From Squalus acanthias (lineage: Eukaryota): a DNA stretch of 64,000 nt. The position numbers and the translations under genes are program-made. Location of the stretch: NCBI GenBank assembly GCA_030390025.1, contig CM059432.1, positions 20,524,001 through 20,588,000 on the forward strand, read 5' to 3'. The notes under the pieces were generated by a model. It did not search any database and was not told the origin of the DNA. It saw only the letters and a list, made by a program, of their open reading frames with translations. Below, one piece after another: positions 916-62,330 of this stretch (position 1 is its first letter; the number at the start of each line of letters is the position of its first letter).

Positions 916-2310
916 GCCAAATCAGCGCAGGAATGTCAAGTGCAAATTACGTCCAGCACAAATTGAGTTTCCGTGATCTTTTGCGCTAGTTTGAAAAACA
1001 TCGGCCCGGATTTTGTGGAGGTACTGATGGCAAAACTGTCAGCATTCGCCGTCATTACCCCTCTGAAACTGACCGTAACTTCAGGATTTAGCACATGCGC
1101 AGATAAACACGGACATCCTGAACTTGCAGTCAGTCATTCCCTGCTCCACCAAAGGCTGTGCTGTGGAACTCCCCATAGCCGGCAATCACTGAAATCAATT
1201 GAACTAACGAAAACTTCCCCTTTTCCGCTCTAATATCATTATTAAAAACCCCATAAAATGTTAAGCCATGTTCAGTGAGGTGTAACTGGGTTTTTAACGG
1301 CGTACTGAGTAATAACTAATGCTGAACAACAGTTCTGGCCCTGAAAAACTAATTTTATATTTGTGGAATGTCAAATTTCTCCATTATGATAAAAATTACT
1401 AAATTTTTAAAATAATAAAAAAAAATCTTTTTAAAATTTGTTTATGATATTTCAACTTCTACCTAACTCCATGTGTATGTCGCAATCTTTATTTCACTCT
1501 CTGTAAAAAAAAATTAAATTGCATGATATAAGCTGCATTTTATTTCCTGGTTTGCTGTCTGAGAATTCTTCAATGTGATTGGCTGCTCAAACAGCTTGAT
1601 GACATCACTGCTGCTGTACGCTGGAGATCCCCTTTTGACAGCGCTACAAGAAAACAAAAGTTTTCGCCACAGAGATCGCGAGATCTTTGTGGGCAGCTTT
1701 CTTCGAGGTCAGCGGTGATCGCCGTCGCTTCGCCGCTGACCGCAAATTCCGGACAATTATGTTGGAAGCCGGCCCCGCCCACAAAACTGGCAATGTCCCC
1801 AGATCGAATTAATCACTATGCTGAGTTTTCGCTAATTGCGGGCCTTCGAGGAGGCTCTGAAAGTTAAGCTTTTTTTTTAGGCGCTGGGACACCAATAGAC
1901 ACTTTTTAAAAGGTTTTAAATATTTAAAAATATTTAATTTACTCAGAAACTGAGTACTGCATACTAATGAAACAAGTAAATGGTTCTGTATAGTTTGTTA
2001 AAGTCATTTTAAATTTAGGTTATGCCCATGTGGTGGACGAGACACTTAAAATGCTTATTATTTGTGATAAACCCATTTTTAGCTGTATTAATAAAACTGC
2101 ACCAGGTTACCACTCTTTTCAATTACTATTTTTTAATGCAAATTGTTTTTTTAAATTACGTTCCAAAACATTGCTTGATTGCACTGGTTCACGAAGATTT
2201 TATGTTCGGCCATATGAGTGGAAACATAAGCAAAAAATTTAAGTAGGAAAACTAGCGCAATTTTGAGCGCAATTTGTGCCCGGATTGCTGATTGTGCCCA
2301 AAGTGGAAAC
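915..2310. mobile_element. Decayed non-autonomous DNA transposon (MITE), host of the 1003-1755 insertion
   Basis: Subterminal inverted repeats GCACAAATTG...TTGCGCTAGTTT (~956-992) and AAACTAGCGCAA...CAATTTGTGC (~2249-2279) around an AT-rich core. Confidence 0.6.
1003..1755. mobile_element. PIF/Harbinger-type MITE
   Basis: Imperfect TIRs GGCCCGGATTTTGTGG / CCGCAAATTCCGGACA; flanks ATC/ATT fit a degenerate 3-bp TSD. Confidence 0.65.
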
Positions 2311-2945
2311 TCTGATGATATAACTTCCCACCATTCAGGGCTCCCAAGCACTCCTTCCAGGTGAAACAGTGATTTACTTGTACTTCTTTCAAATTAGTAT
2401 ACTGTATTCGCTGCTCACGATGCTGTCTCCTCTACATTAGGAAGACCAAATGCAGATTAGGCGATCGCTTTGCGGAACACCTCCATTCAGTCCACAAGCG
2501 TGACCCTGAGCTTCCTGTCGCTTGCCATTTAAATTCTCTGCCCCACTTCCACTCTGATCTCTCTGTCCTCGGCTGCCTACACTGTTCCAATGAAGCTCAA
2601 CAGAAGCTCCAGGAACAGCACCTCATCTTTCGGTTCGGCACTCTACAGCTTTCTGGACTCAACATCGGGTTCAACCATTATGATTATAACCGCTGCTCCC
2701 ATTTTTTCGGACAGCAAGTGCTGGTAATGATTCTGCTGCTACCATTTACAGTTCCTCTAGACCCACCTTTTGTTTCTTAACTTGTCCCATTACCACCCCC
2801 TTTTGCCTTGCCCCATCATCCTTTTTGTCATTTAATCTCTCCTGCCTTCCACCCTATCACAGACCTTCCCTTTTGTTCTTTCCTCTCCTCAACCTTTCCC
2901 TGCCCCTGCACTTGCCTAAAACCTGTTACATCTGTCACATTTTCC

Positions 2946-2978
2946 ACTTCTGACGAAGGGTCATCGACCTGAAATGTT
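2946..2978 (+). ncRNA. Minimal hammerhead ribozyme, disrupted by the Harbinger insertion
   Basis: CTGACGA core, stem II GGGTC/GACCT, GAAA, TGTT (decayed AACGTT palindrome); the stem I 3' arm AACT now lies at 7110-7113. Confidence 0.7.
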
Positions 2979-3249
2979 GGCCACGATTTTCAGAGTGGAG
3001 GCGGGTTGGGGGCAGCTTTGATGTTCGGTGGGTTCCGGTCCCGCTGTCGGTTTCAGCCGCCCTGGAATTAAGATTTTTGCTTCAGTGGGCTGATTAAGCC
3101 CGTCGTGCGCGCTACCCGGCCCAATCATTGGGTTCGGGTCTGCTGCTCGCCTCTGCTGATGTCTCTCAGCCAGCTGCATTTAAGGGGCCCATGCCGCCTT
3201 GTTTTTGATCGATCCTTTCCTGCTGCTTCTCGGTGTGTCACTTCTGAAA

Positions 3250-5161
3250 ATGACTGCTGCAAGACCCAAGGCATCTCCCAGATTTGATGTTGACTCCCTC
3301 CATGCTCTTGTGGAGGGAGTGAGAGGGCGCCAAGAGGTACTGTTCCCCTCAAACGGACGGAGGAAGCCTCCTCAGCAAAGCAAGGTAGCCTGGCTGCAAA
3401 TTGCTGAGGAGGTGAGCGCCAGGTCTTTGTGTGGTCGCACCTGGGTTCAGTGCAGGAAAAGGTTCAATGACCTGCTACGCACAGCAAAAGTGAGTATAAC
3501 ATCACACTTACCTTCAATCTGCTCCCCATCTCCTCTCATCACCAGCACTCTGCATTGTCAACCTACTCCTGCACATCCCACTTTACCCTTACATCCCTTG
3601 CACCCTTAACCATCCCTCTCTCTCTCTATGCACAGAATCACTTCACTATTCTACTATGCACCCCTCACACTCACTCTCACTGTTATGCAATGACCACAAC
3701 TGACAATGCACAGGGAGGGCCCTTGGTATTGGCACCTCATTCCATCTTTGTCTCCCTCTAAGCATCTATGCTATGGATTCTCTACACTCACTCCTACATT
3801 CTCACTCAAACTCCACTTGTGTCCCTCATTGCAGGAAAAGAGAGCCCACAATAAGAGGAGAGGGGGAGGACAGGAGGAGGCCCACCTTCGATTGCCCACT
3901 TGACCACCGCTGAGGAGGCTGCTCTCGACATCGTCGGAGGTGCTGAGGATCTGGAAGTGGGCGACGGTCAGACAGGCGCAGTAGAGCAAGCTGGTGACAG
4001 AATAGATTTGCAGCCCTCTCATTTAGATTGCATGAGTGACTGATATGGCATCTGATGTTCATACAGATTGAGTTCTGATCATCTGCACAAGTCGATGTGC
4101 CTGCTATGTTACTATCACATGTCTAACTCATGCCTTTGCTCCCCCACAGGACCATCAAGAGCTCCCCTCCGCACTGTCCAGGAGGAAGAGCTGGAGGACT
4201 CCTCAGAGGAAGCTGCAACCTCTGAGGGCGCAGTGTCAGCAGAATTGAGCTGCACCCAGCACCAGCGCAGAGTCGCACACCTCGGTGGGTCATTCGCGAG
4301 ATAGATTAGTGTTGTCACCTAGTGTATCACAGCTCACAAGTCAGCAGCAGCAGATGGTGGAGAAGGGACAGCAGTGGAGAGTCCTCGTCGGAGGCCGCAG
4401 GGCGCTTTCAGCTCTGCTCAGCTGCATGTGACCCTGTGCCTCTGGGGCCATCCAGAAAGAGAGCGGTGCTGGAACTTCAGCAACAAGTGCAGTAGTCTCT
4501 GACAGGTTTTGCATCCACGGTAACTACAAGTGTGCAGAGAATGGAGGAGTCCATCTCAAACATAAGCAATGCCATGTTGGAGGCAATGGCGCATGAACGT
4601 GCCACCATGGAGAGGGTGGCAACCTCCTTGGAGGATATAAGTCGCCAGACTCAACAGAGCATGGTGACTCTTCTAAATAGATGGTCTGCTATGGAGGATA
4701 GATGGGCAGCTATTGAGGAGAGACACCAGAGGTACATGGACGTCCCCATTATGAGGACTGTCAGTACAGAGACAGGTCCTCATGGCCCCACTGATGTGCA
4801 GCAAGGTGCTCTCCAGCTACTTGCTAGCAGTGAAGTACGGGCGACCCATGAGAGGGATGTTGGTGGTCGACAACAAGGAAGTGTGGGCTCCTCTCCAAGT
4901 GCTCACACTCCCATGCCACTGCAGAGCCCTCGGTCAGAGCCCTAGATTCCTTACCCAACTGAGATGGCTGTCTCAGCCCTGCACAGCCGCAGCAGGAGCA
5001 GACTGTTGCCGAGCCCTCCCAGGCGCAAACCCAGAGGACACCTGCCAAAGGTGTCGAAGCAGGAACAACATGAAAGTGAACAAGGTGCCTCCACATCTGC
5101 TGAAGCCACAGGGGAAGCACCACGTAGAAGCACGCGTAAGAGAAAGTTAACACACAATTAG
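3250..5161 (+). pseudogene. Harbinger Myb/SANT-like DNA-binding protein gene, spliced (exons ~3250-3489, ~3835-3993, ~4151-5161), with frameshifts and stops
   Basis: PRFDVDSLHALVEGV...AWLQIAEEVS...RTWVQCRKRFNDL trihelix/Myb motif; donor GTGAGT at 3490; acceptor TTGCAG at 3834; EKRAHN...RTGGGPP motif in exon 2; acceptor CCACAG near 4150. Confidence 0.85.
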
Positions 5162-5424: not shown

Positions 5425-6568
5425 TTAAGCGAATCTGGCATGGATTAGTGCATCCCTTGCATCACGGCCAGCAATGTGCTCGCGTGCTGGTGGAACTGGC
5501 ACATCCGCCTCTGCAAGGTCTTCCTCCTCCTCCTCTGAGGAAGAGGCTGTGTGCTGAGCCACTTGTTCCTCAGGCAGCAGTAAGCCACGCTACTGTGCGA
5601 TGTTGTGCAGTACACAGCAGACCACGATGATTCTGGAGACCCTGGCTGGTGCATACTTTAGGGCTCCCCCTGATCTGTTGAGGCATCTGAATCGCATTTT
5701 GAGCAAGCCGATGGTTTGCTCGATGATGGCTCTGGTGGAAATGTGGCTGACATTGTAACGCTCCTCAGCTTCGCTTGATGGCCTCCTCAACGGCGTCATT
5801 AGCCACGTCTTCAGGGGATAGCCCTTGTCTCCAAGTAGCCATCCAGAAAGTTGGGTTGGCAGATTGAAGAGCTGAGGCACAGTAGACTGCCGCAGGATGA
5901 ACGAGTCATGGCAACTGCCAGGGAACTTGGCGCAAACATGCATAATGTTCTTCCTGTGGTTACACACCAGCTGGACGTTAAGGGAGTGGAAGCCCTTGCG
6001 GTTCACAAATACAGCTAGGTTGTGATGGGGTGCCCTAATGGCCACATGTGTGCAGTCTACGACGCCCTGCACCCTTGGCAAGCCTGCCATATTTGCAAAG
6101 CCAACCGCACGCACGGTTACACTTGCTTGATCCGTGGAGAAGTGATGTAATTGTGCGCATTTGCAAAGAGGGCATCGGTAACCTGCGTGATGCAAGTGTG
6201 TGCGGCCGACTGGGAGATGCCGCTGATGTCTGATGATGATCCCTGGAAGGACCCTGAATCCAAAAAATTGAGGGCGGTGGTGACTTTGGCAGCCACTGGT
6301 AAGGAGTGTCCACACGTTCCTCTGGGCTCCAGGTGTTGGTGCAGCATTGCGCAGATGTCAGCGACTACCTCTCGCGAAAGTCTCAGCCTCCTTTGGCACT
6401 GCTGCTCAGTCATGTTGAGGAAGCTCATCCTCTGCCTGTAAACCCTGTGTTGGGGGTATCTCCTGTGGCGCGGTGCAGCCCTGCGCTGACACACTCTGAG
6501 GAGGAGGTTAGCGCTCCTGTTGTTGCTGCTGCTGTTGTGCCTGGTGAGAGGGTATAAATGGTTCCCAT
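5425..6568 (-). pseudogene. Harbinger (HARBI1-like) DDE transposase with frameshifts and a premature stop at 5590
   Basis: [24 protein letters not shown] (D), [30 protein letters not shown] (D), [21 protein letters not shown] (E), CCVLHN; frame continues past the 5590 TAG to RDALIHARFA*. Confidence 0.92.
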
Positions 6569-23237: not shown

Positions 23238-25073
23238 TACATGTTTTATAAATATATTAAGAGTAAGAGGATAACTAAAGAAAGGGTAGGACCTATTAGA
23301 GATCATGAGGGTAATCTGTGTGTGGAGGCGGGAGACGTCGGTAGGGTTCTTAATGAATACTTTGCGTCTGTTTTCACAAAGGAGAGGGGCGAAGCAGACA
23401 TTGCTATCGGGGGGAGAGTGTGAAATATTAGATGAAATAAACATAGTGAAAGAGGAAGTATTAAGGGGTTTAGCAGCTTTAAAAGTGGATAAATCCGCAG
23501 GCCCGGATGAAATGTATCCCAGGCTGTTAAGCGAAGCAAAAGAGGAAATAGCAGAGGCCCTGACCATCATTTTTCAATCCTCTCTGGCTTCAGGTGTGAC
23601 GCTGGAGGACTCGAGGACCGCTAATGTGGTACCCTTGTTTAAAAAGGGAGAAAAGGATAGACCGAGTAATTACAGGCCAGTCAGCCTAACTTCGGTGGTG
23701 GGAAAATTATTGGAAAGAATTCTGAAGGACAGGATAAATCTTCATTTCGAAAGACACCGATTAATCAAGGATAGTCAGCACGGATTTGTTAAGGGAAGGT
23801 CGCGTCTGACAAACTTGATTGAATTTTTTGAGGAGGTAACAAGGAGGGTAGATGAGGGTAGTGCGTTTGACGTAGTCTATATGGACTTTAGCAAGGCTTT
23901 TGATAAGGTTCCATGTGGCAGACTGGTCATGAAGTTAAAAGCCCATGGGATCCAGGGCAAAGTGTCAAGTTGGATTCAAAACTGGCTCGGAGACAGGAAG
24001 CAGAGGGTAATGGTTCATGGGTGTTTTTGTGACTGGAAGGCTGTTTCCAGTGGAGTTCCGCAGGGCTCAGTACTAGGTCCCTTGCTTTTTGTGGTATATA
24101 TCAACGATCTTGACTTGAATATAGGAGGTATGATTAAGAAGTTTGCAGATGATACTAAAATCAGCTGTGTGATTGATACTGAAGAAAGAAGCTGTAGACT
24201 GCAGGAAGATATTAATAAATTGGTCAGGTGGGCAGAACAGTGGCAAATGAAATTCAATCCAGAAAAGTGTGAGGTAATGCATTTGGGGAGGGCTAACAAG
24301 GAAAGGGAATACACATTAAATGGTAGGACACTAAGTAGTGTAGAGGAAGAAAGGGACCTTGGAGTGCATGTCCACAGATCCCTGAAGGAAGCAGGCCAAG
24401 TAGATAAGGTGGTTAAGAAGGCATACGGAATGCTTGCCTTTATTAGCCATGGCATAGAATACAAGAGCAGGGGGGGTTATGCTTCAACTGTATAAAATAC
24501 TAGTTTGGCCTCAGCTAGAGTACTGCGTGCAGTTCTGGTCACCACATTACAGGAAAGATGTGATTGCACTAGAGAGGGTACAGAGGAGATTTACAAGGAT
24601 GTTGCTGGGAGTAGTGAATCTTAGCTATGAGGAAAGACTGGATAGGCTGGGTCTGTTTTCCTTGGAACAGAGGAGGCTGAGGGGAGACCTTATTGAGGTG
24701 TATAAAATTATTTGAGGTGTATAGATAAAGTGGATAGAAAGGACCTATTTCCCTTAGCAGAGGGGTCAAAAACCAGAGGGCACAGATTTAAAGTAATTGG
24801 GGGAAGGTTTAGAGGGGATTTGAGGGGAAATTTCTTCACCCAGAGGGTTGTGGGAGTCTGGAACTCACTGCCTGAAAGGGTGGTAGAGGAAGGAACCCTA
24901 ACCACATTTAAAAAGTACTTGGATGTGCACTTGGGATGCTCTAACCTGCAGGGCTACGGGCCAAGAGCTGGGAAGTGGGATTAGGCTGGATAGCTCTTTG
25001 TTGGCTGGCGCAGACACGATGGGCCGAAATGGCCTCCTTCCGTGCTGTAACTTTCTATGATTCTATGATTCTA
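23238..25073 (+). mobile_element. CR1 LINE, 5'-truncated, RT largely open (23305-24495)
   Basis: NYRPVSLTSVVGK, SQHGFVKG, MDFSKAFDKV, GVPQGSVLGP, KFADDTK; (TTCTATGA)n tail. Confidence 0.95.
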
Positions 25074-41935: not shown

Positions 41936-42360
41936 CAATAGGTGAAGTAAGAGTGACTGCCCTTGACATCGACGCACCATTCGACCGAGTGTGCCACCAA
42001 GGAGCCATAGTAAAACTGAAGTCAAAGGGGATCATGGGGAAAACTCTCCAATGGCTGAAGTTATACCTAACACAAAGGAAGATGGTTGTGGTTGTTGGAG
42101 GCCAATCGTCTCAGCCCCAGGACATTGCTCCAGGAGTTCCTCAGGGCAGTGTCCTCGGCCCAACTACAGCTGCTTCATCAATGAGCTTCCCTCCATCATA
42201 AGGTCAGAGGTAGGGCTCTTCGCTGATTGCAAAGTGTTCAGCTCTATATGGAATAAAGCAGTCCATGCCTGCATGCAGCAAGACCTGGACAACACCCAGG
42301 CTTGGGCTGATAAGTGGCAAGAAATGTTCGTGCCACACAAGTGCCAGGCAATGACCATAA
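41936..42360 (+). mobile_element. RT fragment of the LINE family at 49997-53200
   Basis: GEVRVTALDI, GVPQGSVLGP, GLFADC; collinear with 52055-52455. Confidence 0.88.
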
Positions 42361-43769: not shown

Positions 43770-46553
43770 TCAAGCTATCACACTCCCTATCACTCTGGTG
43801 TGCTCCATGTGCTTATCCAATAACCGCTTGAAAGTTCCTAAAGTGTCCGACTCCACTATCACAGCAGGCAGTCCATTCCACACCCCAACCACTCTCTGAG
43901 TAAAGAATCTACCTCGGACATCCCTTCTATATCTCCCCCCATGCACCTTATAGTTATGCCCCCTTGTAACAGCTGCCTCTACCCGAGGAAATAGTCTCTG
44001 AACATCCACTCTATCTATCCCCCTCATCATCTTATAAACCTCTATTAAGTCGCCTCTCATCCTCCTCCGCTCTAAAGAGAAAAGCCCCAACTCCCTCAAT
44101 CTTTCCTCATAAGACCTCCCCCCCAAACCAGGCAGCATCCTGGTAAATCTCCTTTGCACTCTTTCCAATGCTTCCACGTCCTTCCTATAGTGAGGTGACC
44201 AGAACTGCACACAATATTCCAAATGTGGTCTCACCAAGGTCCTGTACAGTTGCAGCATAACCTCACGGTTCTTAAACTCAAACCCTCTGTTAATAAACGC
44301 CAACACACCATAGGCCTTCTTTACTGCTCTATCCACTTGAGTGGCAACCTTCAGAGATCTGTGGATATGAACCCCCAGATCCCTCTGCTCCTCCACGTTC
44401 CTCAGAACCCTGCCGTTGACCCTGTAATCCTTATTCAAATTTGCCCTACCAAAATGAATCACCTCGCACTTATCAGGGTTAAATTCCATCTGCCATTTTT
44501 CGGCCCAGCTCTGCATCCTATCAATGTCTCTTTGCAGCCTACAACAGCCCTCCACCTCATCCACTGCTCCACCAATCTTGGTGTCATCAGCAAATTTACT
44601 GATCCACCCTTCAGTCCCCTCCTCCAAGTCATTGATAAAAATCACAAACAGCAGAGGACCCAGCACCGACCCCTGTGGCACACCGCTGGTAACTGGTCTC
44701 CAGTCCGAAAATGTTCCATCCACCACCACCCTCTGCCTTCTATGAGATAGCCAGTTACTTATCCAATCGGCCAAATTTCCCTCTATCCCACAACTCCTTA
44801 CTTTCTTCATAAGCCGACCATGGGGAACCTTATCAAACGCCTTACTAAAATCCATGTATACGACATCAACTGCTCTACCTTCATCTACACACTTAGTTAC
44901 CTCCTCAAAGAATTCAATCAAATTTGTTAGGCAAGACTTACCCTTCACGAATCCGTGTTGACTATCCCTGATTAAGTTGCCCCTTTCCAAATGGTCATAA
45001 ATCCTATCCCTCAGGACCTTTTCCATTATCTTACCAACCACCGAAGTAAGACTAACTGGCCTATAATTACCAGGGTCATTCCTATTTCCTTTCTTGAAGA
45101 GAGGAACAACATTCGCCACTCTCCAGTCCTCTGGCACCATTCCCGTGGACAGTGAGGACCCAAAGATCAAAGCCAGAGGCTCTGCAATCTCCTCCCTTGC
45201 CTCCCAAAGAATCCTAGGATATATCCCATCTGGCCCAGGGGACTTATCGACCCTCAGGTTCTTCAAAATTGCTAAAACATCTTCCCTCAGAACATCTACC
45301 ACCTCCAGCCTATCCACCTTTATCACACTCTCATCCTCAAGAACATGGCCCCTCTCCTCGGTGAACACTGACGAAAAGTATTCATTCATCACCTCTCCTA
45401 TCTCTTCTGACTCCATGCACAAGTTCCCACTACTGTCCTTGACCGGCCCTACCCTCACCCTGGTCATTCTTTTATTTCTCACATAAGAGTAAAAAGCCTT
45501 GGGGTTTTCCTTGATCCGACCCGCCAAGGACTTCTCATGCCCCCTCCTAGCTCTCCTAAGCTCTTTTTTTAGCTCATTCCTTGCTACCTTGTACCCCTCA
45601 ATCGACCCAACTGAACCTTGTTTTCTCATCCTTACATACGCTTCCTTTTTCCTCTTGACTAGACATTCAACCTCTTTTGTGAACCATGGTTCTCTCACTC
45701 GGCCATTTCCTCCCTGCCTGACAGGGACATACCTATCAAGGACACGCAGTAATTGCTCCATGAAAAAGCTCCACTTTTCGTTTGTGCCTTTCCCTGATAG
45801 TTTCTGTTCCCATCTTATACTCCCTAATTCTTGCCTAATCGCATCATAATTACCCCTCCCCCAATTATAAACCCTGCCCTGCCGTATGGCCCTATCCCTC
45901 TCCATTGCAATAGTGAACGTTACCGAATTGTGGTCACTATCTCCAAAGTGCTCTCCCACATACAAATCAAACACTTGGCCCGGTTCATTACCCAGTACCA
46001 AATCCAACGTGGCCCCAGCTCTTGTCGGCCTATCCACATATTGTGTCAGGAAACCCTCCTGCACACACAGTGCAAAAACTATCCCATCCGAACTGTTTGA
46101 CCTATAAAGGTTCCAATCAATATTTGGAAAGTTGAAGTCACCCATGACAACTACTCTGTGACCTCCACACCTATTCATAATCTGCTTTGCAATTTCTTCC
46201 TCCACATCTCTATTACTATTTGGGGGCCTGTAGAAAACTCCTAACAACGTGACCGCTCCTTTCCTATTTCTAACTTCAGCCCATATTACCTCAGACGGCA
46301 GATCCCCCTCGAACTACCTTTCTGCCGCTGTTAAACTATCCTTGATTAACAATGCTACTCCTCCACCTTTCTTACCAACTTCCCTACTCTTACTGAAACA
46401 TCTATACCCCGGAACTTCCAACAACCATTCCTGTCCCTGTTCTAACCATGTCTCCGTAATGGCCACCACATCGTAGTCCCAAGTACCAATCCATGCTCCA
46501 AGTTCTCCTACCTTATTCCGGATGCTCCTTGCATTGAAGTAGACACACTTCAA
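43770..46553 (-). CDS. CR1 ORF2: APE endonuclease plus reverse transcriptase, one internal TAG at 46314-46316
   Basis: KCVYFNARSI, AITETWL, GGGVALL, GDFNFP, LDLVL, SDHN, YRPVSLTS, DFSKAFD, PQGSVLGP, FADD; ORFs 46314-46553 and 43770-46247 share one frame. Confidence 0.93.
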
Positions 46554-46580
46554 GCCATCTTCCTGTCTGCCGGTACATTC

Positions 46581-47594
46581 CTACGACCTTGATACCCTCC
46601 TCAGTACCTCCCTACACTCACCACTGGCTCCTGGACTACAGCCCTTTTTCCCATCCCCCTGACAAATTAGTTTAAACCCCCCCCGAAGAGCCGTAGCAAA
46701 TTTCCCTCCCAGGATATTGGTGCCCCTCTGGTTCAGGTGCAAACCGTCCTGTTTGTACAGGTCCCACCTTCCCCAGAATGTGCTCCAATTATCCACATAA
46801 CTGAAACCCTCCCCGCTACACCATCCCTGCAGCCACGTGTTTATCTGCACTCTCTCCCTGTTCCTCAACTCGCTAGCACGTGGCACCGGCAACAAACCAG
46901 AAATTACAACATGGTTTGTACTGGCTCTCAGCTTCCAACCTAGCTCCCTAAATTCCTGTTTTAAATCCCCGTCCCTTCTCCTACCTATGTCGTTGGTACC
47001 GATGTGTACCACGACTTGTGATTGTTCCCCCTCCCCTTTGAGGATTCTGAAAACACGGTCCGAGACGTCACGGACCCTGGCACCCGGGAGGCAACATACC
47101 ATCCGTGAGTCTCTTTTGCTGCCACAGAACCTCCTATCTGTCCCTCTGACTATTGAGTCCCCAATAACTATTGCTCTCCTGCTCTCCCCCGTTCCCTTCT
47201 GAGCCACAGGGACGGACCCAGCGCCGGAGATCCGGTCACCATGGCTTACCACTGGTAAGTCGTCCCCCTCAACAGTATTCAAAGCGGTATACCTGTTACT
47301 GAGGGGAACGACCACAGAGGATCCCTGCACTGACTGCTTCCTCCTAGCCCCTCTCACCGTCACCCATCTATCTTCATGCTTTGGAGTAATTACATCCCTG
47401 AAGCTTCTATCTATGACCTCCTCTGCCTCCCGAATGATCCGAAGTTCATCCAGCTCCAGCTCCAGTTCCCTAACACGGTTTTCGAGGAGCTGGAGATGGG
47501 TGCACTTCCCACAGGTGTAATCAGCAGGGACACCTACGGTGTCCCTCACCTCAAACATTCTGCAGGAGGAACATTTCACTGCCTCCCCTGCCAT
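46581..47594 (-). CDS. CR1 ORF1: zinc finger, leucine zipper and SGNH/GDSL esterase
   Basis: CSSC...CGKC, LENRVRELELELDEL, IVIGDSIVRG, VHIGTNDI, DGLHLN. Confidence 0.93.
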   Translation of the reverse strand: MAGEAVKCSSCRMFEVRDTVGVPADYTCGKCTHLQLLENRVRELELELDELRIIREAEEVIDRSFRDVITPKHEDRWVTVRGARRKQSVQGSSVVVPLSNRYTALNTVEGDDLPVVSHGDRISGAGSVPVAQKGTGESRRAIVIGDSIVRGTDRRFCGSKRDSRMVCCLPGARVRDVSDRVFRILKGEGEQSQVVVHIGTNDIGRRRDGDLKQEFRELGWKLRASTNHVVISGLLPVPRASELRNRERVQINTWLQGWCSGEGFSYVDNWSTFWGRWDLYKQDGLHLNQRGTNILGGKFATALRGGFKLICQGDGKKGCSPGASGECREVLRRVSRS

Positions 47595-47790
47595 CCCCTC
47601 CAGCTAACTTGCAGATTAAACTAGAACAAAAAAGAGCTTACCTGATAGTCACTCACCTCCTTTAGGTTAGAGGAGGAGGAAGGGTGGGGGACACTACAAG
47701 TGTAGTGTCTCGGGTTTAGGAACCGCCCAACTTATATACAGGTAAAAATTAATCACCTACCCAGCAACCACTGCGTCCCGCACTTTAAAA

Positions 47791-48685: not shown

Positions 48686-49019
48686 AAAAGAACTATAAGA
48701 ATAATAATAGAGAAAAATCTAAAGGAGAATCTGAGAAAATAAGGAGAAGGGGTTAAGCCAAAATTGTCCCCTAAATGTGGGACTTGGATTTGACTTTAGG
48801 CCAGACTGATTGAAAGAAAGCTGTTTGTAAGGGCCTTAAGCAAAATGTACATGAGCAGCCTCAGCATCCTTCCTAGTGGAAATAATCTCATAGTGCAAAA
48901 AATACCCAGAGCATAAACCCCCTCCCAAACAGCACACAATTCAACGTGTTGTGATAGTCTCAATAGGAGAGGCTACAATTTTAGCTGGTATTGGAAATGA
49001 AAATGGCACATTATAGGAG

Positions 49020-49288
49020 CCTCATTGTCTTAGTTGTATCTTGCTATGTCTTTGATGTAATGCCTTCCTGACTGACCTGATTGTTTCTCTGCCGAGGTGT
49101 GATAAAAGGCAGTCAGAAAGATTAACTGTAGTCGTCTGACATTGTACTCTGCACAGGCATTGTTCTCTGTCTATATATGCTTTGCCGATTCATATTCCTT
49201 CACTTCACCTGACGAAGGAGCAGCAGCTCCGAAAGCTTGTGATTTCAAATAAAGCTGTTGGACTATAACCTGGTGTTGTGCGACTTCT
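49020..49288 (+). mobile_element. Penelope pLTR-only insertion
   Basis: Same 3' end as 36290-36377; 13-bp TSD CACATTATAGGAG (49007-49019 / 49289-49301). Confidence 0.88.
49205..49242 (+). ncRNA. Minimal type I hammerhead ribozyme, core intact
   Basis: Stem I TCAC/GTGA, CTGACGA, stem II GGAGC/GCTCC, GAAA, AAGCTT palindrome. Confidence 0.85.
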
Positions 49289-49996
49289 CACATTATAGGA
49301 GGTGCTATTCTGGGACTGAGAGAAGGCACGTTATTGGAGAAAATAAGCTTGACTCTGCACTTGGCTCCATGCTATGTCTGGCCTGGGAATGTGTGATGTA
49401 GACATTAGATGTGAAAAGTAGAAAAAGTGTTTCATTCTCGCACAGTGACATTCCTGATCTTCATTAATACAAAATTCCAGAGTGTCTATTGACATCACTG
49501 TGCCAGCCAATGAGTTGGAGGTGGGGCGGGACTTACAGCAAACAGTCTATTTAACAGTAAAGAAAGGCCTAGAAATTTGCTCGGCCCCCGAAAATGGGCC
49601 CAGGGATCACGATGCGCGATCAACCCGCGTCCGTTCAGAGGAATGCAGGCAGCATGCAAACTTTGTGCTGCCTGGTCATTTCCATGATTGCAGCGTTCAG
49701 CCCAGCGCTTAACACGCTGCTGAGTGGCTGAACGCTCAGCCGGGGGCCTAAGTTTGTGTGAGGTGAGCACCAATTAAAGCTAGCCTGTACTAATTAAAGG
49801 CAGTCTGCAACTCTTAAAGGGGAGGTGCAATCTGCTTGCAGCAGCTCATTCAACTGGCTGGGTGCGCAGGAAGATCAACTAATGATGGCATAACAGGGGA
49901 AAGAGCATGCACCAAGGGGGTGGGGGTGGGGGTGGGCGGGAGTTGGTAGGAAGCCCTCCAGGCAAAATCGCAAACGGCAATGTGAGCAGATATTAA

Positions 49997-52900
49997 GGGA
50001 AAGGTAGCATAGTGGTTATGTTACTGGACTAGTAATCCAGAGGCCTGGACTAATGATCCAGAGACGTGAGTTCAAATCCCACCACGGCAGCTGGGGAATT
50101 TAAATTCAGTTAAATCTGGAACAAAAAGCTAGTATCAGTAATGGTGACCATGAAACTATCGGATTGTCGTAAAAATCCATCTGAATCACTAATGTCCTTT
50201 AGCGAAGGAAATCTGCTGTCCTTATCTGGTCTGGCCTATATATGACTCCAGATCCACAGCAATGTGGTTGACTCTCAGTACACAACCACTACGAAAAACA
50301 ATAATAAGAATAAAACTGGAGGGACTGGAGAGACCACCTGGCATCGGCTTCGGACACGACAACGGCACATCCAGACCAGTCGACCCTGCAAAGTCCTCCT
50401 CATTAACATCTGGGGACTTGTGCCAAAATTGGGAGAGCTGTCCCACAGACTAGTCAAGCAACAGCCTGACATATTCATACTCATAGAATCATACCTTTCA
50501 GCCAATGTCCCAAACTCCTCCATCACCATCCCTGGGTAAGTCCTGTCCCACCGGAACGACAGACCCACCAGAAGTGGCGGCACAGTGGTATAGAGTCGGG
50601 AGGGAGTGGCCCTGGGAGATCTCAACATTGACTCCGGACCCCATGAAGTTTCATGGCTTCAGGTCAAGCATGGGCAAGGACACCTCCTGCTGATTACCAC
50701 CTACCGCCCTCCCTCAGTTGATGAATCAGTACTCCTCCAGGTTGAACACCACTTGGAAGAAGCACTGAAAGTAGCAAGGGCACAGAATGTACTCTGGGTG
50801 GGGGACTTCAATGTCCATCACCAAGAGTGGCTGGGCAGCACCACTACTGACCGAGCTGGCCGAGTCCTGAAGGACATAGCTGCCAGACTAGGACTATGGC
50901 AGGTGGTGAGAGAACCAACACGAGGGAAAAACCTACTTCACCTCGTCCTGTCGCAAATGCATATGTCCATGACAGCATTGGTAGCAGTGACCACCGCACA
51001 GTCCTTGTGGAGACGAAATCCCATCCTCACACTGAGGACACCATCATTCGTGTTGTTTGGCACTACCACTGTGCTAAATGGGATAGATTCAGTACAGATC
51101 TAGCAGCTCAAAACTGGGCAATCATGAGGCGCTATGGGCCATCAGCAGCAGCAGAATTGTATTCCACCACAATCTGTAACCTCATGGCCCGGCATATCCT
51201 TCACACTATCATTACCATCAAGTCAATGGGCCAACCCTGGTTCAGTGAGGAGTGCAGAAGAGCATGCCAGGTGCAGCACCAGGCGTACCTAAAAATGAGG
51301 TGCCAACCTGGGGAAGCTGCAACACAGGACTGCATGCATGCTAAACAGTGGAAGCAGCATGCTATAGACAGAGCTAAGTGATCCCACAATCAACGGATCA
51401 GATCAAAGCTCTGCAGTCCTGCCACATCCAGTCATGAATGGTGGTGGACAATTAAACAACTAATGGGAGCAGGCGGCTCCATGAATATCCCCATCCTCAA
51501 TGGAGCCCAGCACGTGAGTGCAAAAGACAAGGCTGAAGCATTTGCAACAATCTTCAGCCAGAAGTGCCAAGTAGATAATCCATCATGGCCTCCTCCTGAG
51601 GTCCCCACCACTACAAAACCAGTCTTCAGCCAATTTGATTCACTCCATGTGATACCAAGAAGTGGCTGAGCGCACTGGATACAGCAAAGGCGATAGGTCC
51701 TGACAACATCCTGGCTGTCGTGCTGAAGACTTGTGCTCCAGAACTAGCCGCGCCTCTAACCAAGCTGTTCCGGTACAGCTACAACACTGGTATCTACCCA
51801 ACAATGTGGAAAACTGCCGAGGTATGTCCTGTCCACAAAAAGCAGGACAAATCAATCCAACCAATTACCGCCCCATCAGTCTACTCTCAATCATCAGCAA
51901 AGTGATGGAAGGTGTCGTCGACAGTGCTATCAAGCGGCACTTACTCACCAATAACCTGCTCACTGATGCTCAGTTTGGGTTTCGACAGGAACACTCGGCT
52001 CCAGACCTCATTACAGCCTTGGTCCAAACATGGACCAAAGAGCTGAATTCCAGAGGTGAGGTGAGAGTGACTGCTCTTGACATCAAGGCAGCATTTGACT
52101 GAGTTTGGCATCAAGGAGCCCTAGTAAAATTGAAGTCATTGGGAATCGGGGGGAAAACTCTCCACTGGCTGGAGTCATACCTAGCACAAAGGAAGACGGT
52201 TGTAGTTGTTGGAGGCCAATCACCTCAACCCCAGGACATCACTGCAAGAGTTCCTCAGGGCAGTGTCTTAGGTCCAACCATCTTCAGCTGCTTCATCAAT
52301 GACCTTCCCTCCATCACACTGTTCAGTTCCATTCGCAACTCCTCAGATAATGAAGTAGTCCATGCCCGAAAGCAGCAAGACCTGGATGACGTTCAGGCTT
52401 GGGCTGATATGGGGCAAGTAACATTCACGCCACGCAAGTGCCAGGCAATGACTATCTCCAACAAGCGAGATTCTAACCACCGCCCCTTGACATTCAACGG
52501 TATTGCCATCGCCGAATCCCCCACCATCAACATCCTGGGGTCACCATTGACCAGAAACTTAACTGGACCAGCCACATAAATACTGTGGCTACAAGAGCAG
52601 GTCAGAGGCTGGGTATTCTGTGACAAGTGTCTCACCTTCTGACTCCCCAAAGACTTTCCACCATCTACAAGGCACAAGTCAGGAGTGTGATGGAATACTC
52701 TCCACTTGCCTGGATGAGTGCAGCTCTAACCACACTCAAGAAGCTTGACACCATCCAGGACAAAGCAGCCCAGTTGATTGGCACCCCATCCACCACCTTA
52801 AACATTCACTCTCTGCACCACCGGCGTACCGTGGCTACAATGTGTACCATCTACAAGATGCACTGCAGCAACTCACCAAGGATTCTTCGGCAGCACCCCC

Positions 52901-53200
52901 AAAGCTGCGACCTCTACCACCTAGAAGGACAAGGGCAGCAGGTGTATGGGAAGACCATCACCTGCATGTTCCCCATCAAATTACACACCATCCTGACTTG
53001 GAAGTATATTGCCATTCCCTCATCGTCACTGGGTCAAAATCCTGGAAATCCCTGCCTAACAGCACTGTGGGAGAGCCTTCACCACACGGACTGCAGCAGT
53101 TCAAGAGGCAGCTCACCACCACCTTCTCAAGGGCAATTTGGGATGGGCAATAAATGCTGGCCTTGCCAGCGATGCCATCATTCCTGGAACGAATAAAAAA
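49997..53200 (+). mobile_element. Single-ORF EN+RT LINE (CR1/L2 group) with a tRNA-derived 5' head; coding region decayed
   Basis: KVLLINIWGL, ILIESYL, YRPP, VGDFNVH, SDH, NYRPISLLS, QFGFR, LDIKAAFD, PQGSVLGP; tail GGGCAATAAATGCTGGCCTTGCCAGCGATGCC-polyA; AGATA on both flanks. Confidence 0.9.
50004..50080 (+). promoter_or_regulatory. Type 2 (tRNA-like) RNA polymerase III internal promoter
   Basis: A box TAGCATAGTGG (50005-50015) and B box GTTCAAATCC (50070-50079). Confidence 0.75.
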
Positions 53201-53478
53201 AGATAGCCATAGCTGTCAATGTCAGTATTGTAGTCCCAAGGTTATGGCTGCAATGCAGGAAGAAGTTTAATGACCTCATGTGAGTAGTCAAGGTCAGTGA
53301 CTTCATCTTCAAATGCCATATCCCACCATCTGCACCACTGGTCTCACACACTGTTCAATTCACAGCACCCCCATCACTCAAATACCAACAATCTCTCCAA
53401 AACACGACTTGTACCTCACTTTGATAGCTTCACTTCACCCTCACACACTGCTGCAAGCCTCGCACCCACATCTCACAT

Positions 53479-55020
53479 AAACATAGAAGATAGGAGCAGG
53501 AGTAGGCCTTCGGCCCCTCGAGCCTGTTCTGCCATTTAATGAGATCATGGCTGATCATCCAAATTCAGTACCCTGTCCCTGCTTTCTCCCCATATCCCTT
53601 GATCCCTTTAGCCTTAAGAAATATATCTATCTCCTTCTTGAATATATTTAATGAATTGGCCTCAACTGCCTTGTGTGGTAGAGAATTCCACAGGTTCAGC
53701 ACTCTCTGGGTGAATAAATTCCTCCTCATCTCAGTCCTAAATGGCTTACCCCTTATCCTTAGACTGTGACCCCTGGTTCTGGACTCCCCCGCCATCGGGA
53801 ACATCCTTCCTGCATCTAGTCTGTCTAGTCCTGTTAGAATTTTATAAGTTTCAATGAGATGCCCTCTCATTCTTCTAAACTCTAGCGTATATAAGCCTGA
53901 TCGACCCAATCTCTCCTCATACGTCATTCCTGCCATCCCAGGTATCAGTCTGGTGAATCTTCGCTGCACTCCCTCCATGGCAAGAACATCCTTCCTCAGA
54001 TAAGGCGACCAAAACTGCACACAATACTCAAGGTGTGGTCTCACCAAGGCCCTGTACAACTGCAGCAAGACATCCTTGCTCCTGTACTCGAATCCTCTCG
54101 CTATGAAGGCCGACATACCATTTGCCTTCTTAATCGCCTGCTGCACCTGCATGCTTACCTTCAGCGACTGGTGCACAAGGACACTCAGGTCTCGTTGCAC
54201 TTCCCCTTTTCCCAATCTATTGCTGTTCAGATAATAATCTGTCTTCCTGTTTTTTTGCCACCGAAGTGGATAACCTCGCATTTATCCACATTATACTGCA
54301 TCTGCCATGCATCTGCCCAATCACCCAACCTGTCCAAATCATACTGGAGTTTCTCTGCATCCTCCTCACAGCACACACACCCACCCAGCTTTGTGTCGTC
54401 TGCAAACTTGGAGATATTACATCTAGTTCCCTCGTCTAGATCATTTATATATATTGTGAATAGCTGGGGTCCTAGGACCGATCCCTGCGGTACCCCACTA
54501 GTCACTGCCTGCCACTCGGAAAAAGACCCGTTTATTCCAACTCTTTGCTTCCTGTCTGCCAACCAGTTCTCTATCCAAGACAGAACCTTACCCCCAACCC
54601 CATGTGCTTTAACTTTGCACGCTAATCTCTTATGCGGGACCTTATCGAAAGCCTTCTGAAAGTCCAAATACACCACATCCACTGGTTCTCCCTTATCTAT
54701 TCTACCAGTTACATCCTCAAAAAATTCCAGTAGATTTGTCAAGCATGATTTACCTTTTGTAGATCCATGTTGACTTTGTCCGATCCTGTCACTGTTTTCC
54801 AAGTGCTCTGCTATTACATCTTTTATAATGGACTCTAGCATTTTCCCCACTACCGATGTCAGGCTTACTGGTCTATAATTCCCTGTTTTCTCTCTACTAC
54901 CTTTTTTAAATAGTGGGGTTACATTAGCTATCCTCCAATCCATGGGAACTGTTCCAGAGTCTATAGAATTTTGGAAGATGACCAGCAATGCATCTACTAT
55001 TTCTAGGGCCACTTCCTTAA
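53479..55020 (-). mobile_element. CR1 LINE, 5'-truncated, inside the Harbinger Myb intron
   Basis: [44 protein letters not shown]. Confidence 0.95.
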
Positions 55021-55919
55021 GCTTGCACACACTATCAGCTATTCAACCATGACAGGCACATCATCCAAACTCATTGCACCACACTCACTGACACACTTTC
55101 CTTTCTCTTTTAGAACAAGGTGGCTCACAATTGGAACCAGCAGGGGCTACCCGAAGGGGCACAGGCACGCCTGCATAATCTTATCCCATGGAGGAGATGG
55201 TGCTGGCCATTCCTGGGAGGGCAATCGCTGAGCCCGTGGCCAGTGGTGGGGCTGAAGCAATCCAAGATGACGGTATCCTCATATGTATATATTCTCACAT
55301 CCCACTTCCCCCTCATCCCACAATCTCTTCTGATACAAGCTGCACATGGTGTAAACATGCACCTCTTGCTTTACTCCCTTCCCTCACCACAACCTTACCC
55401 GCGTGCCTTTCTCCTTTCAGATAGACAAGAACTTTAGCCTGGCCATGTACTCGTGGAAGAGCAGGAAGACAGTGAGCATGAAGACACAGCATCACTCGAT
55501 TTCACACTTGCAGCCACCTGTTCAGATATGACGCTCTACGTGCTTTAGAGGATTGGTTAGACACGGGATCTGCACGTGGTGAGTCACCGAGCATGAATGG
55601 GCTACAGCCAGGGCAGGGAAAAGCGTAGCGTAGGTGCCAGCTCCAAGTTCTGCTGCAGAGGACTCAGATGAGGACTTTAATGGGCTGGCCTACAGTTGAA
55701 GGCTGATGGGTAAGCACAACGAAATGCTTGGTGCATTGGCAGGCCTGCCAGAAAGCCTGAGTGCAATGTGAAGGAGCATGGAGGTGCCCAGGCACCAACA
55801 TTGCACAGGGCTTTGCGCAGAGCTGGGAGCCCATGATTTCAGCATGGAAGTGATGGCCAACTCCATCAGTGCACTTGTAGACCCAACCATGATGCAGAGC
55901 CATGATGCAATTGTCAATT

Positions 55920-55993
55920 GGCTCCGTGGCTTAGTTGGTTAAAGCGCCTGTCTAGTAAAGAGGAGGTCCTAGATTCAACTCCCAGTAGGGCCT
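55920..55993 (+). pseudogene. tRNA-Thr(AGT) retrocopy fused to a CR1 3' end
   Basis: GGCTCCGTGGCTTAGTTGGTTAAAGCGCCTGTCTAGTAAAGAGGAGGTCCTAGATTCAACTCCCAGTAGGGCCT is close to vertebrate tRNA-Thr(AGT), with anticodon-stem and T-arm mismatches. Confidence 0.88.
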
Positions 55994-55998
55994 GTCTT

Positions 55999-56481
55999 TC
56001 GTTCACCAGACTGATTCCTGGGATGGGGAGATTGTCCTACGAGGAAAGATTGAGGAGACTAGGCCTATGTTCCCTAGAATTTAGAAGAATGAGAGGTGAT
56101 CTCATTGAAACATATATAAAATTCTTACAGGGCTTGACAGCATAGATGCAGGGAGAATGTTTCTCCTGGTAGGGGAGACTATAACTAGGGTTACAGACTC
56201 GGAATAAGGGGCCAGCATTTAGGACTGAGCTGAGGAGAAATCTATTCACTCAAAGGTTGCGATTCTTTGGAATTCTCTACTCCAGAGGCTGTGAATGCTC
56301 AGTCATTGAGTATATTCAAGACAGAGATCGATAGATTTTTGGATATTAAGGGAATCAAGGGATATGGGGATAGTGCGGGAAGGTGGATTTGAGGTAGAAG
56401 ATTAGCCATGATATTGAATGGTGAAGCAGGCTCGAATTGTTGAATGGCCTACTCCTGCTCCTATTCTTATGTTCTTATGTT
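55999..56481 (+). mobile_element. CR1 3' end (body of the tRNA-CR1 chimera)
   Basis: FTRLIPGMGRLSYEERLRRLGL...; (TTATGTTC)n tail. Confidence 0.9.
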
Positions 56482-58765: not shown

Positions 58766-59338
58766 GGGAGGGAGCGGTAGCTTAGTGGTTATGTTACTGG
58801 ACTAGTGATTCAGAGGCCTGGATTAATGATCTGATTTAATGATCTGGAGATGTGAGGGCAAATCCCACCAGGATAGCTGGGGAATTTAAATTCAGTTAAT
58901 TAATTAATTAAATAAATCTGGAATAAAAAAGCTAGTATTAGTAATGGTGACCATGTAACTACCAGGTTGTTGGATAAAACCCATCTGGTTCACTAATTTC
59001 TTTTAGGGAAGGGAATCTGCCATTCTCACCTGGTCTGGCCTATATCCGACTCCAGACCCACCAGTAATGTTGACTTCACTTCACCAGACGAAGGAGCAGC
59101 GCTCCGAAAGCTTGTGATTTCAAATAAAGCTGTTGGACTATAACCTGGTGTTGTGCGACTTCTCACATTTGTCCACCAGTAATGTGGTTGACTCTTAACT
59201 GCCCTCTGAAATGGCTTACCAAACCGCTACAACAAAGTCACTGTGGGAGTACCTTCACCACACAGACTGCACCACCACCTTCTCAAGGGCAATAAATGTT
59301 GCCAGCGATGTCCACTTCCCATGAATGGAAAAAAAAAA
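58766..59338 (+). mobile_element. tRNA SINE consisting of the 5' and 3' ends of the 49997-53200 LINE
   Basis: 58770-59235 aligns with 50000-50295; 59240-59338 aligns with 53063-53200. Confidence 0.9.
59071..59172 (+). mobile_element. 102-bp Penelope pLTR insertion with a mutated hammerhead (CAGACGA)
   Basis: 13-bp TSD CCACCAGTAATGT (59058-59070 / 59173-59185); near-identical to 49198-49294. Confidence 0.9.
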
Positions 59339-60379: not shown

Positions 60380-62330
60380 TCGGAGGAGTGGAGAGTTGGG
60401 GGGGTTGATGGTTGTCGGACTGGAGGAGATTAAAGAGATAGGGGGGATGAAGAGCCTGAGTGATGGATCCCGACTATCGGGACAGTGTGAGATAAGATAT
60501 GGGCAGCAGAGTTTTGGATTAGCTGATGTTTATAGAGGATGCAAGACCAGCGAGGAGAACATTGGAATAGTCATCTGTAGGTGACAAAGGTATGGAAAAA
60601 TGTTTCAGCAGATGGGCTGAGGCAGGGACAGAGGTTATGGAGGTGGTATTCGGCAGTCTTTGTGAAGGAGAGGATATGGGATCCAAAGCTCAGCTCAGGG
60701 TCAAGTAGACACTGAGGTTGCAAACAGTCTGGTTAAGCCTGAGACAATGGCTGAGAAAGGGGATGGAATCAGTGCAAGGGTACAAGTTTGGGGTGAGGGG
60801 GTGGAGGGGGTGGTGTGTGGAGGGATCAAAGACGATAGCTTCAGTCTTCCTGCTGTTTAATTGGAGGAAACTGTGGCTCATCCAAGACTGGATGTCGAAC
60901 AAGCAGTGTGACAGTACAGAGGCAGTGGATGGACCGAAAGAGGTGATGGAGGGGTCGATTTGGGAGTTGTTCATGTGGAAGCTAACTACATGTCTTTGGA
61001 TAATATCACCAAGAGGCAACATGTCGATGAGGAAGCGGAGATGATCGAGGATAGATCCTTCGGAGACTGTGGATGTAATGATATGGGATGGGAAGAGAAG
61101 CCATTGCAGGAGATGCTCTGGCTATGATTAGATAGCTAACAGTGGAACTAAGTGAGAGGAAACCCACTGAGCTGGACAATGGAGAAGGTTCATTGGAGGA
61201 GGATGGTGTGGTCAATCATGTTATTGGCTGCATTCAACGGCATTACCATTGCTGAATCCCCCACCATCAACATCCTGGGGGTCACCATTGACCAGAAACT
61301 TAACTGGACCAGCCACATAAATACTGTGGCAACAAGCGCAGGTCAGAGGCTGGGTATTATGTGACGAGTGTCTCACCTTCTGAATCCCCAAAACCTTTCC
61401 ACCATCTACAAGGCACAAGTAAGGAGTGTGATGGAACATTCGCCACTTGCCTGTATGAGTGCAGCTCTAACAACACTCAAGAAGCTCGACACCATCCAGG
61501 ACAAAGTAGCCCGTTTGATTGGTACCCCATCCACCACCTTAAACATTCACTCCCTCCACCACCGGCGTACCGTGGCTGCAGTGTGCGCCATCTACAAGAT
61601 GCACTGCAGCAACTTGCCAAGGCTTCTTCGGCAGCACCTCCCAAACCCGTGACCTCTACCACCTAGAAGGTCAAGGGCAGCAGGCGCATGGGAACACCAC
61701 CACCTCCAAGTTCCGTTCCAAGTCACACACCATCCTTTGATCCTTTATCGTCGCTGGGTCAAAATCCTGGAACTCCCTACCTAACAGCACTGTGGGAGTA
61801 CCTTCACCACACGGACTGCAGCGGTTCAAGAAGGCGGCTCACCACCACCTTCTCAAGGACAATTAGGGATGGGCAATAAATGCTGGCCTTGCCAGCGATG
61901 CCCACATCCCATAAACAAATAAAAAAAAAGAATGGTCAAAGAGGGAAATTGCACCATGGTCACAGATTATATTATTTGTGACTTTAGTTAGGGACATTTC
62001 AATGCTGTGCATGGATGGAAACCTGATTGAAGAGATTCAAACATGGAATTGCAGGGAAGTTGGACATCCATTTGGGAGGGGACAACACATTTAAGATCTT
62101 TGAAGAGATAAGGGAGATTGGACATGGGGTAGTAGTTTGCAAGAACAGAGGGGTCAAGGGTATGTTTTTTGAAGAGGGGGTGATGACGGCAGATTTTAAA
62201 GGGAAAGGGACAGTACCTGAGGAGAGGAAAATGTTTACAATGTCTGATAGCTTGGGGGCCAGGGAGGGAAGTTGGGTGGTCAGTAGTTTAGTGGGAATGG
62301 GGTCTAGGACGTAGGAGATGGGTGCATGAA
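60380..62330 (-). mobile_element. L2 LINE, decayed, interrupted at 61228-61929
   Basis: LDPIPTKLL, KSAVITP, LQLNSRKTEAIVF. Confidence 0.85.
61228..61929 (+). mobile_element. 5'-truncated copy of the 49997-53200 LINE family
   Basis: FNGITIAESPTINILGV, IYKAQVRSVME, shared tail plus polyA. Confidence 0.92.

Follow-up and report, generated by a model that had tools for sequence, protein, structure and literature searches.

A tRNA-headed LINE of Squalus acanthias that lacks runs of four T: a candidate for transcription by RNA polymerase III

The DNA analyzed is a 64,000-nt stretch of the Squalus acanthias genome (assembly GCA_030390025.1, CM059432.1:20,524,001-20,588,000, forward strand), referred to below as the window. 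Positions 49997-53201 (+) are occupied by a single inserted element, a decayed copy of an abundant long interspersed element (LINE), whose terminal A-run ends at 53201. It opens with GGGAAAGGTAGCATAGTGG and closes with ...GAACGAATAAAAAAA. The insertion is almost certainly one dead copy of an abundant, autonomous LINE of ~3.3 kb that has no ORF1 and carries a single open reading frame (ORF) running from an apurinic/apyrimidinic endonuclease (APE) through a reverse transcriptase (RT) to a C-terminal domain. Its parts are as follows.

49997..50096 (+), head of tRNA origin, in which a duplicated anticodon-arm-like segment lies between the A box and the B box (Rfam tRNA)
50097..50330 (+), AT-rich leader (~230 nt) of the type found in short interspersed elements (SINEs) (21-copy alignment; also present in the short SINE form)
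50262..50264 (+), conserved leader ATG (GCAATGTGG), which opens ORF0 (phase measured across copies)
50387..51103 (+), apurinic/apyrimidinic-type endonuclease domain, frameshifted in the window copy (Pfam Exo_endo_phos_2, E=1.4e-9; Exo_endo_phos, E=1e-3)
51704..52579 (+), reverse transcriptase domain, its frame interrupted by a stop codon (52100-52102) in the window copy (Pfam RVT_1, E=4e-10 and 1.2e-9)
52624..53108 (+), ORF C-terminal domain and start of the 3' untranslated region (UTR) (colinear BLASTP of copy L076 against a local CR1-like ORF2 through ...MEY..W...L..LD.IQ...)
53109..53201 (+), 3' tail common to the SINE form, ending ...GGGCAATAAATGCTGGCC...GAAyGAATAAAAAAA, the last A forming a short run (alignment of the window copy's 3' end with 37 from other loci; SINE joints at 53107-53127)

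The original prediction, made from the letters of the window, had described a 3.2-kb unit that starts with A and B boxes and a SINE-like leader and continues into APE and RT with no ORF1, and Rfam and Pfam searches matched this description. In the window copy Pfam finds endonuclease and RT in broken frames, and no ORF1 is present there; the combination of Exo_endo_phos_2 and RVT_1 marks the element as an APE-type LINE. The leader of this copy is without 8 nt and ~38 nt that are present in most copies (21-copy alignment), and its RT region is without ~35 nt near 52316 that other copies have at element position 2320. Less damaged copies hold frames of up to 744 amino acids (aa). One of them (L012) carries Exo_endo_phos, Exo_endo_phos_2 and RVT_1 in one 716-aa frame; another (L076) matches RVT_1 at E=1.6e-38, and its ORF and the intact ORF2 found in a local CR1-like LINE are colinear, with 26% identity (BLASTP). 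The nearest database proteins are no more than 40% identical (the closest 37-40%, on contigs of 3.4-3.8 kb) and are unnamed, with the exception of a piece with 73% identity that lies within a shark protein model, named aldo-keto reductase by one source.

Other copies were collected by searching the 3.7-Gb genome. Candidate counts from these searches are first-look lower bounds, and the sampled copies are those scoring best against the window copy, with old or divergent subfamilies lying outside the sample. A query with the head and leader gave at least 5820 candidates, from which 9 non-self loci were returned. The 5' region of the ORF (element 340-900), used as a query that does not select for the head, gave at least 5402 candidates and 29 non-self loci. 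A query with the last 300 nt of the element supplied 29 loci that were examined for truncation, and the near-full-length sample comprised 9 loci, in addition to the loci representing the 5' and 3' ends.

The head belongs to the family and is inherited with the ORF. Eight of the 9 loci found by head and leader run straight into the LINE body, and 16 of the 29 ORF-selected copies carry the head colinearly, one of them with an insertion of ~800 bp in between. The remaining 13 begin inside the leader, at positions ~102-351, and an alternative 5' UTR or an ORF1 was seen in none of the 29. The original prediction had named two observations that would undo it: a head attached to this copy alone, which these counts reject, and a separate 5' UTR or ORF1 in other full-length copies, which did not appear. 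Two variants of the head are distinguished at positions 13, 21, 26 and 32 (ATTA in 11 copies, GACG-like in 5), and in this small sample the two sets of copies also differ at element 301, 316 and 883. The linkage of head variants to body variants indicates that head and ORF have been inherited together through more than one master lineage.

Full-length copies start with GGGAA, GGAA or GAA, within 1-3 nt of one another, and their upstream flanks are unrelated. Ends so precise in front of unrelated flanks imply that the template RNA starts at the first base of the element, and therefore that an internal promoter is required. The only recognizable promoter at the 5' end appears, as judged from its sequence motifs, to be the type-2 promoter for RNA polymerase III (Pol III) contained in the head. 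Five of the 13 leader-truncated copies (L012, L016, L018, L021 and L035) start at element 102-116, just 3' of the tRNA part; this clustering could reflect RT stalling at a structured head or a second transcription start. A head-and-leader copy in L010 stops at element ~345 and is followed immediately by a run of eight to nine T (1395-1410, minus strand); it may represent a deletion, a truncation or the product of early transcript termination.

Within the head, an A box (TAGCATAGTGG) lies at 50005-50015 and a B box (GAGTTCAAATC) at 50070-50080, the first base of the element being 8 nt 5' of the A box. The spacing between the two boxes is 54 nt because the anticodon-arm-like segment is duplicated. 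Rfam matches its tRNA model to 50004-50083 at 26.3 bits (gathering score 29; E=0.021; model positions 7-64), and Rfam matches nothing else at E<=1 in 49500-53700. Since that sole match is tRNA, no hepatitis delta virus (HDV)-like ribozyme is found in the same interval at that threshold. Of 21 aligned copies, 15 have the A-box pattern and 19 the B-box pattern, and the head of one copy (L014) reaches the gathering score at 29.6 bits. A 5' tRNA head with A and B boxes is the hallmark of tRNA-derived SINEs. ARAGORN found no sense-strand tRNA in 60 metagenome loci that encode distant relatives of the LINE, a result that is uninformative because the program also misses the head of the element studied here.

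At the other end the copies behave as those of a LINE should, being dispersed, sharing a common 3' end and varying in 5' truncation: the 29 loci found by the 3' end start at many element positions (e.g. 2057 to 2890) or run past the edge of the locus. The 3' end of the window copy and all 37 that were aligned from other loci read ...GGGCAATAAATGCTGGCCTTGCCAGCGAyGCCCACATCCCAkGAAyGAAT(A)n with a short A-run, and the microsatellite-like 3' repeats of the CR1/L2 clade are absent from all of them.

The family also has a short, multi-copy SINE form of ~440-480 bp, composed of the LINE 5' ~300 nt and 3' ~90-140 nt with the ORF deleted. One such copy (L051, 2428-2834, minus strand), which lies beside a LINE copy, joins element ~46-300 to 3113-3204. 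A 141-nt query across the leader-tail junction was spanned fully by all 40 scored genome matches, drawn from at least 2916 candidates, and Logan contigs of two sequencing runs show SINE joints from 50275 to 53107-53127. Logan contigs of four runs, whose status as RNA is a guess and which are mute on expression, start sites and strand, span the element with cover dropping at both ends. Made up solely of the 5' and 3' regions of an autonomous LINE, the short form is a bipartite non-autonomous LINE. The description of a SINE as short and non-coding fits only this ~440-480-nt deletion form and not the 3.2-kb element with APE and RT. Because the SINE form is the same element without its ORF, LINE and SINE share both ends. 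Further members of the family in the window are these.

41940..42358 (+), older piece of this LINE family, matching element 2058-2459 at 78% identity, without any TTTT (blastn)
58770..59338 (+), short SINE-form copy (head, leader and LINE 3' tail) with a nested insertion of ~100 nt (blastn match to element 1-269 and reading of the sequence)
61231..61926 (+), LINE copy of this family truncated at its 5' end, matching element 2495-3204 at 88% identity, without any TTTT (blastn)

The insertion in the SINE copy, at 59067-59165, is a ~100-nt piece of another repeat (...cacttcaccagacgaaggagcagc...gatttcaaataaagctgttggactataacctggtg...). From ORF translations, a similar piece seems to be present upstream of the LINE, at ~49190-49300.

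Homopolymer runs of at least four T or A on the sense strand (T4+ and A4+) were counted in the element, its relatives and control LINEs. The 3204 nt of the window copy, at 21% T, contain 16 runs of four or more A, 11 of C and 7 of G, and none of T. The claim of the original prediction that TTTT is missing from the element and from the family fragments at 41936-42360 and 61228-61929, with several in the CR1 at 23238-25073, was borne out by counts of 0, 0 and 0 against 8. The element lies in a T4-free stretch of 4857 nt (48983-53839), longer than any other on either strand of the window, where the next measure 2422 and 1649 nt. In 67 copies, with 117,113 nt aligned, the counts are 20 T4+ (0.17/kb) and 582 A4+ (4.97/kb); no T4+ site is common to three or more copies, while 17 A4+ sites are common to at least half of them. 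The T4+ runs are private ones, and the ancestral element therefore had none in ~3.3 kb. Five near-full spans have 0, 0, 0, 1 and 2 T4+. Shuffling the mononucleotides of the window copy gives 4.7 expected T4+ against the 0 observed (P=0.007).

Local controls were three CR1-like LINEs, at 43773-47603 (-), 23238-25073 and 53568-55042 (-), which have 13, 8 and 3 T4+, as shuffles predict. Distant controls were 51 related LINE loci on metagenome contigs, each with an ORF of 2.1-2.9 kb; none is T4-free, the minimum is 2 T4+, the median observed/expected ratio is 1.29, and the four relatives with T at or below 23% have 5-12. The absence of T4+ makes this element an outlier among the LINEs examined. 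The control at 43773-47603 is a young-looking LINE, with a 340-aa ORF1 that contains a GDSL-lipase/esterase domain (46584-47603) and an uninterrupted 847-aa APE and RT ORF2 (43773-46313).

How the ORF begins is a further peculiarity of the family. In 19 of 20 copies the APE frame opens just past a conserved in-frame TAA and is then free of ATG for the ~36 codons (QTATK..NNKNETGRTTRHRPRHRLRTRQRHTQPSRP) that lead to the motif containing the catalytic N of APE, and the N-terminal motif itself, CKVLL(I/T)NIWGL, is kept in copies. When 12 relatives are aligned with L076, the majority consensus starts with M ~13 residues before that motif. The leader ATG at 50262 opens ORF0, of 74-76 codons in 5 less damaged copies, which overlaps the start of the APE frame; relative to ORF0, the APE frame is at -1 (phase 2) in 11 of 16 measurable copies. 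An ATG-GCC-TAG mini-ORF in the APE frame lies farther upstream and is preceded by several other ATGs. No canonical X XXY YYZ slippery heptamer was found by eye in the overlap of ORF0 and APE. An unconventional start would suit both the want of any conserved AUG in frame and the presence of several AUGs upstream, and initiation is predicted to proceed by a non-AUG codon, by reinitiation or by a -1 shift from ORF0, whichever polymerase acts.

We propose, at a probability of roughly 45%, that Pol III makes the full-length LINE RNA from the type-2 promoter of the head. Pol III would start at the head of full-length copies as well as of the SINE form. Given an ancestral sense strand without T4+, it would read through the whole ~3.3 kb and stop in the 3' flank, yielding an uncapped RNA. 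Such an RNA would be translated inefficiently without a cap, starting by non-AUG initiation, by reinitiation or by a -1 shift from the 76-codon leader ORF. A stringent-type RT, acting in cis, would prime on the shared 3' tail, as for the SINE. We suggest more tentatively that selection may have kept the element free of T4 terminators, that it may be translated cap-free from a leader without an in-frame AUG, and that the SINE may be the same transcription unit with the ORF deleted.

Several points weigh against transcription of the whole LINE by Pol III. The test on T4+ rests wholly on one ancestral sequence. A dinucleotide shuffle expects 2.4 T4+ (P=0.06; TT observed/expected 0.79), and the lengths of T-runs decay smoothly (T1 464, T2 85, T3 13, T4+ 0), so that extrapolation gives only ~2 T4+. 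Synonymous-codon shuffles of five long ORFs expect 0.7-2.6 (P(0)=0.04-0.43), those of ORFs of 1.7-2.2 kb 1.6-2.6 (P(0)=0.04-0.17), with three ORFs of ~2.2 kb at P(0)=0.04-0.12. The gap is carried largely by a T-poor composition and by the use of TTC over TTT, the Phe codons TTC:TTT numbering 16:4, 14:5 and 13:1 in three long ORFs and 7:5 in L012, against 15:23 and 3:13 in local LINE controls; selection against T-runs could have produced this T-poor composition, or it may simply be the base composition of the family. The original prediction was to fall if TTTT were depleted no more than composition would lead one to expect, and on this the outcome is borderline: depletion is upheld by the lack of any T4-free LINE among the 51 relatives and the three local controls, and left in doubt by the dinucleotide and codon shuffles. 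We regard the absence of T4+ as a prediction that came true and that carries moderate weight, not as proof. The head, read by eye, is a degenerate tRNA with no acceptor-stem pairing; ARAGORN makes no tRNA call for it, and L014 is the only one of 17 loci with an Rfam tRNA match to the head at E<=0.1. The AATAAA hexamers close to the 3' end would be compatible with 3' processing of RNA polymerase II (Pol II) transcripts as well. Uncapped RNAs are poorly translated, and we know of no natural kilobase-length protein-coding vertebrate transcript made by Pol III.

With the same anatomy, Pol II could instead make the LINE template RNA, a serious possibility that falls short of even odds. LINE 5' UTRs are often replaced and some SINE sequences have Pol II promoter activity, and to our knowledge all characterized LINEs with internal promoters use Pol II. 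The captured SINE 5' module would be a new 5' UTR, and a Pol II promoter inside the element, in its head or in the AT-rich leader, where TATA-like tracts occur, would start at +1; the copies beginning at element 102-116 might mark a second start site. Pol III would then make only the short SINE form or abortive RNAs, and the T4 gap would follow from a T-poor, C-rich composition and the preference for TTC, as the lack of significance against the element's own dinucleotides and codons allows; the AATAAA hexamers at the 3' end are in keeping with this. Pol II transcription is also what Kojima 2018 (PMC5786205) assumes for LINEs and their bipartite derivatives. The composition invoked is itself unusual, however, since no T4-free LINE occurs among the 51 distant relatives and three local controls and the local LINEs favor TTT over TTC. 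Both head variants have kept A and B boxes that would recruit Pol III to the same start, so that interference would be expected, and upstream AUGs with no in-frame AUG are ill-suited to cap-dependent scanning too. Improbable by comparison is a head that is not a LINE promoter at all, with an RNase P-like activity trimming read-through or host RNA at the tRNA-like structure. In its favor, the precise 5' ends fall within a nucleotide or two of tRNA position +1, and there is an analogy with the 5' HDV-like ribozymes of R2 and L1Tc, uncapped processed LINE RNAs being known from PMC3185411 and PMC3383444. By reading of the sequence, the 5' GGGAACG is not paired with the 7 nt that follow the T arm, and for want of such acceptor-stem pairing RNase P-type processing is rejected as the main model; Rfam, moreover, aligns only tRNA model positions 7-64 and gives no ribozyme family at E<=1 in 49500-53700, and thousands of copies would demand constant fortuitous upstream promoters. 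That a SINE landed beside, or was template-switched onto, a 5'-truncated LINE in one copy is refuted: the same head-leader-ORF junction recurs on many chromosomes with differing flanks.

The accepted view makes LINEs transcripts of Pol II and SINEs non-coding transcripts of Pol III, a division that underlies models of SINE origin and of competition between LINEs and SINEs. A high-copy LINE with a vertically inherited SINE head blurs this division no matter which polymerase is used. Should Pol III make the full-length RNA, this would be, as far as we know, the first natural kilobase-scale protein-coding Pol III transcript of a vertebrate and a natural system for cap-independent translation, and the pair would be a living example of SINEs born from, or giving birth to, their LINEs.

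RTE-type LINEs are elements of ~3.2 kb with a single APE and RT ORF and a short overlapping upstream ORF. The family resembles them in size, in having no ORF1 protein and in a short upstream ORF overlapping the main one in a different frame, but differs in the colinear alignment of its ORF with a CR1-like ORF2, which extends to the C-terminal ...EY..W...L..L..Q... motif. The leader appears unlike the sequence of HE1 or V-SINE. Pairs of a tRNA-derived SINE and a partner LINE are described in PMC3747384, for example HE1/HER1 in sharks and rays and UnaSINE1/UnaL2 in the eel, in which only the 3' tail is shared. The present pair is like them in its tRNA-type head with A and B boxes, in a SINE tail identical to a LINE tail of the stringent type and in its 5'-truncated LINE copies; unlike them, the autonomous LINE here carries the SINE head and body at its own 5' end, and both ends are shared. 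In Kojima 2018 (PMC5786205), LINE 5' contributions to SINEs or bipartite forms come only from the RTE and Vingi clades, and a small-RNA head is placed on the short derivative only, with the remark that SINEs are incapable of coding for protein. The short form studied here resembles those bipartite elements in consisting of LINE 5' and 3' parts with the ORF deleted; the difference is that here the head sits on the coding element, whose ORF is colinear with a CR1-like ORF2 (26% identity). A concrete LINE/SINE pair sharing both ends bears directly on the model in which SINEs originate by addition of a head to a deleted LINE (PMC5786205). As in R2 and L1Tc (PMC3185411 and PMC3383444), a structured small-RNA-like 5' module sets the first base of the RNA and the ORF has no conventional AUG context, but here no ribozyme is detectable and the module is a tRNA relic of the Pol III promoter type rather than a self-cleaver. 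In open-access full text, including PMC5786205, PMC3747384 and PMC5499810, neither a LINE with a tRNA-derived 5' end nor one transcribed by Pol III was found described. Repbase or Dfam may already list the family.

The original prediction had placed the insertion in a Harbinger Myb exon that rejoins across it, and the flanks agree with this. When they were joined in silico, tblastn of a Myb-like ORF at 3184-3606 crossed the junction in one frame (E=7e-9; joined positions 348-554, junction 396/397), the downstream flank alone giving E=1.4e-8. The short Myb-flank ORFs around the element received no Pfam call. The query ORF belongs to a Harbinger-type pair in the window, a Myb/SANT-like ORF (Myb_DNA-bind_5) at 3184-3606 (+) and a DDE_Tnp_4 transposase ORF at 5593-6357 (-), and the element sits inside a second, diverged Myb-like ORF. 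Among the copies, target-site duplications are short or ambiguous because the tail is A-rich. The ~30-nt flanks of the window copy, at 49961-49996 and 53202-53233, are loosely alike (...CAATGTGAGCAGATATT... and ...CAATGTCAGTATT...), which may represent a long (~25 nt), diverged target-site duplication.

Farther along the window, ARAGORN calls a tRNA-Thr(AGT) at 55920-55993 that runs into sequence like the 3' coding end of a CR1-like LINE (cf. the ORF at 53568-54281, minus strand). The interval 55920-56400 (+) looks like a second, conventional SINE with a tRNA head and a LINE tail, and has a run of five T at ~56336.

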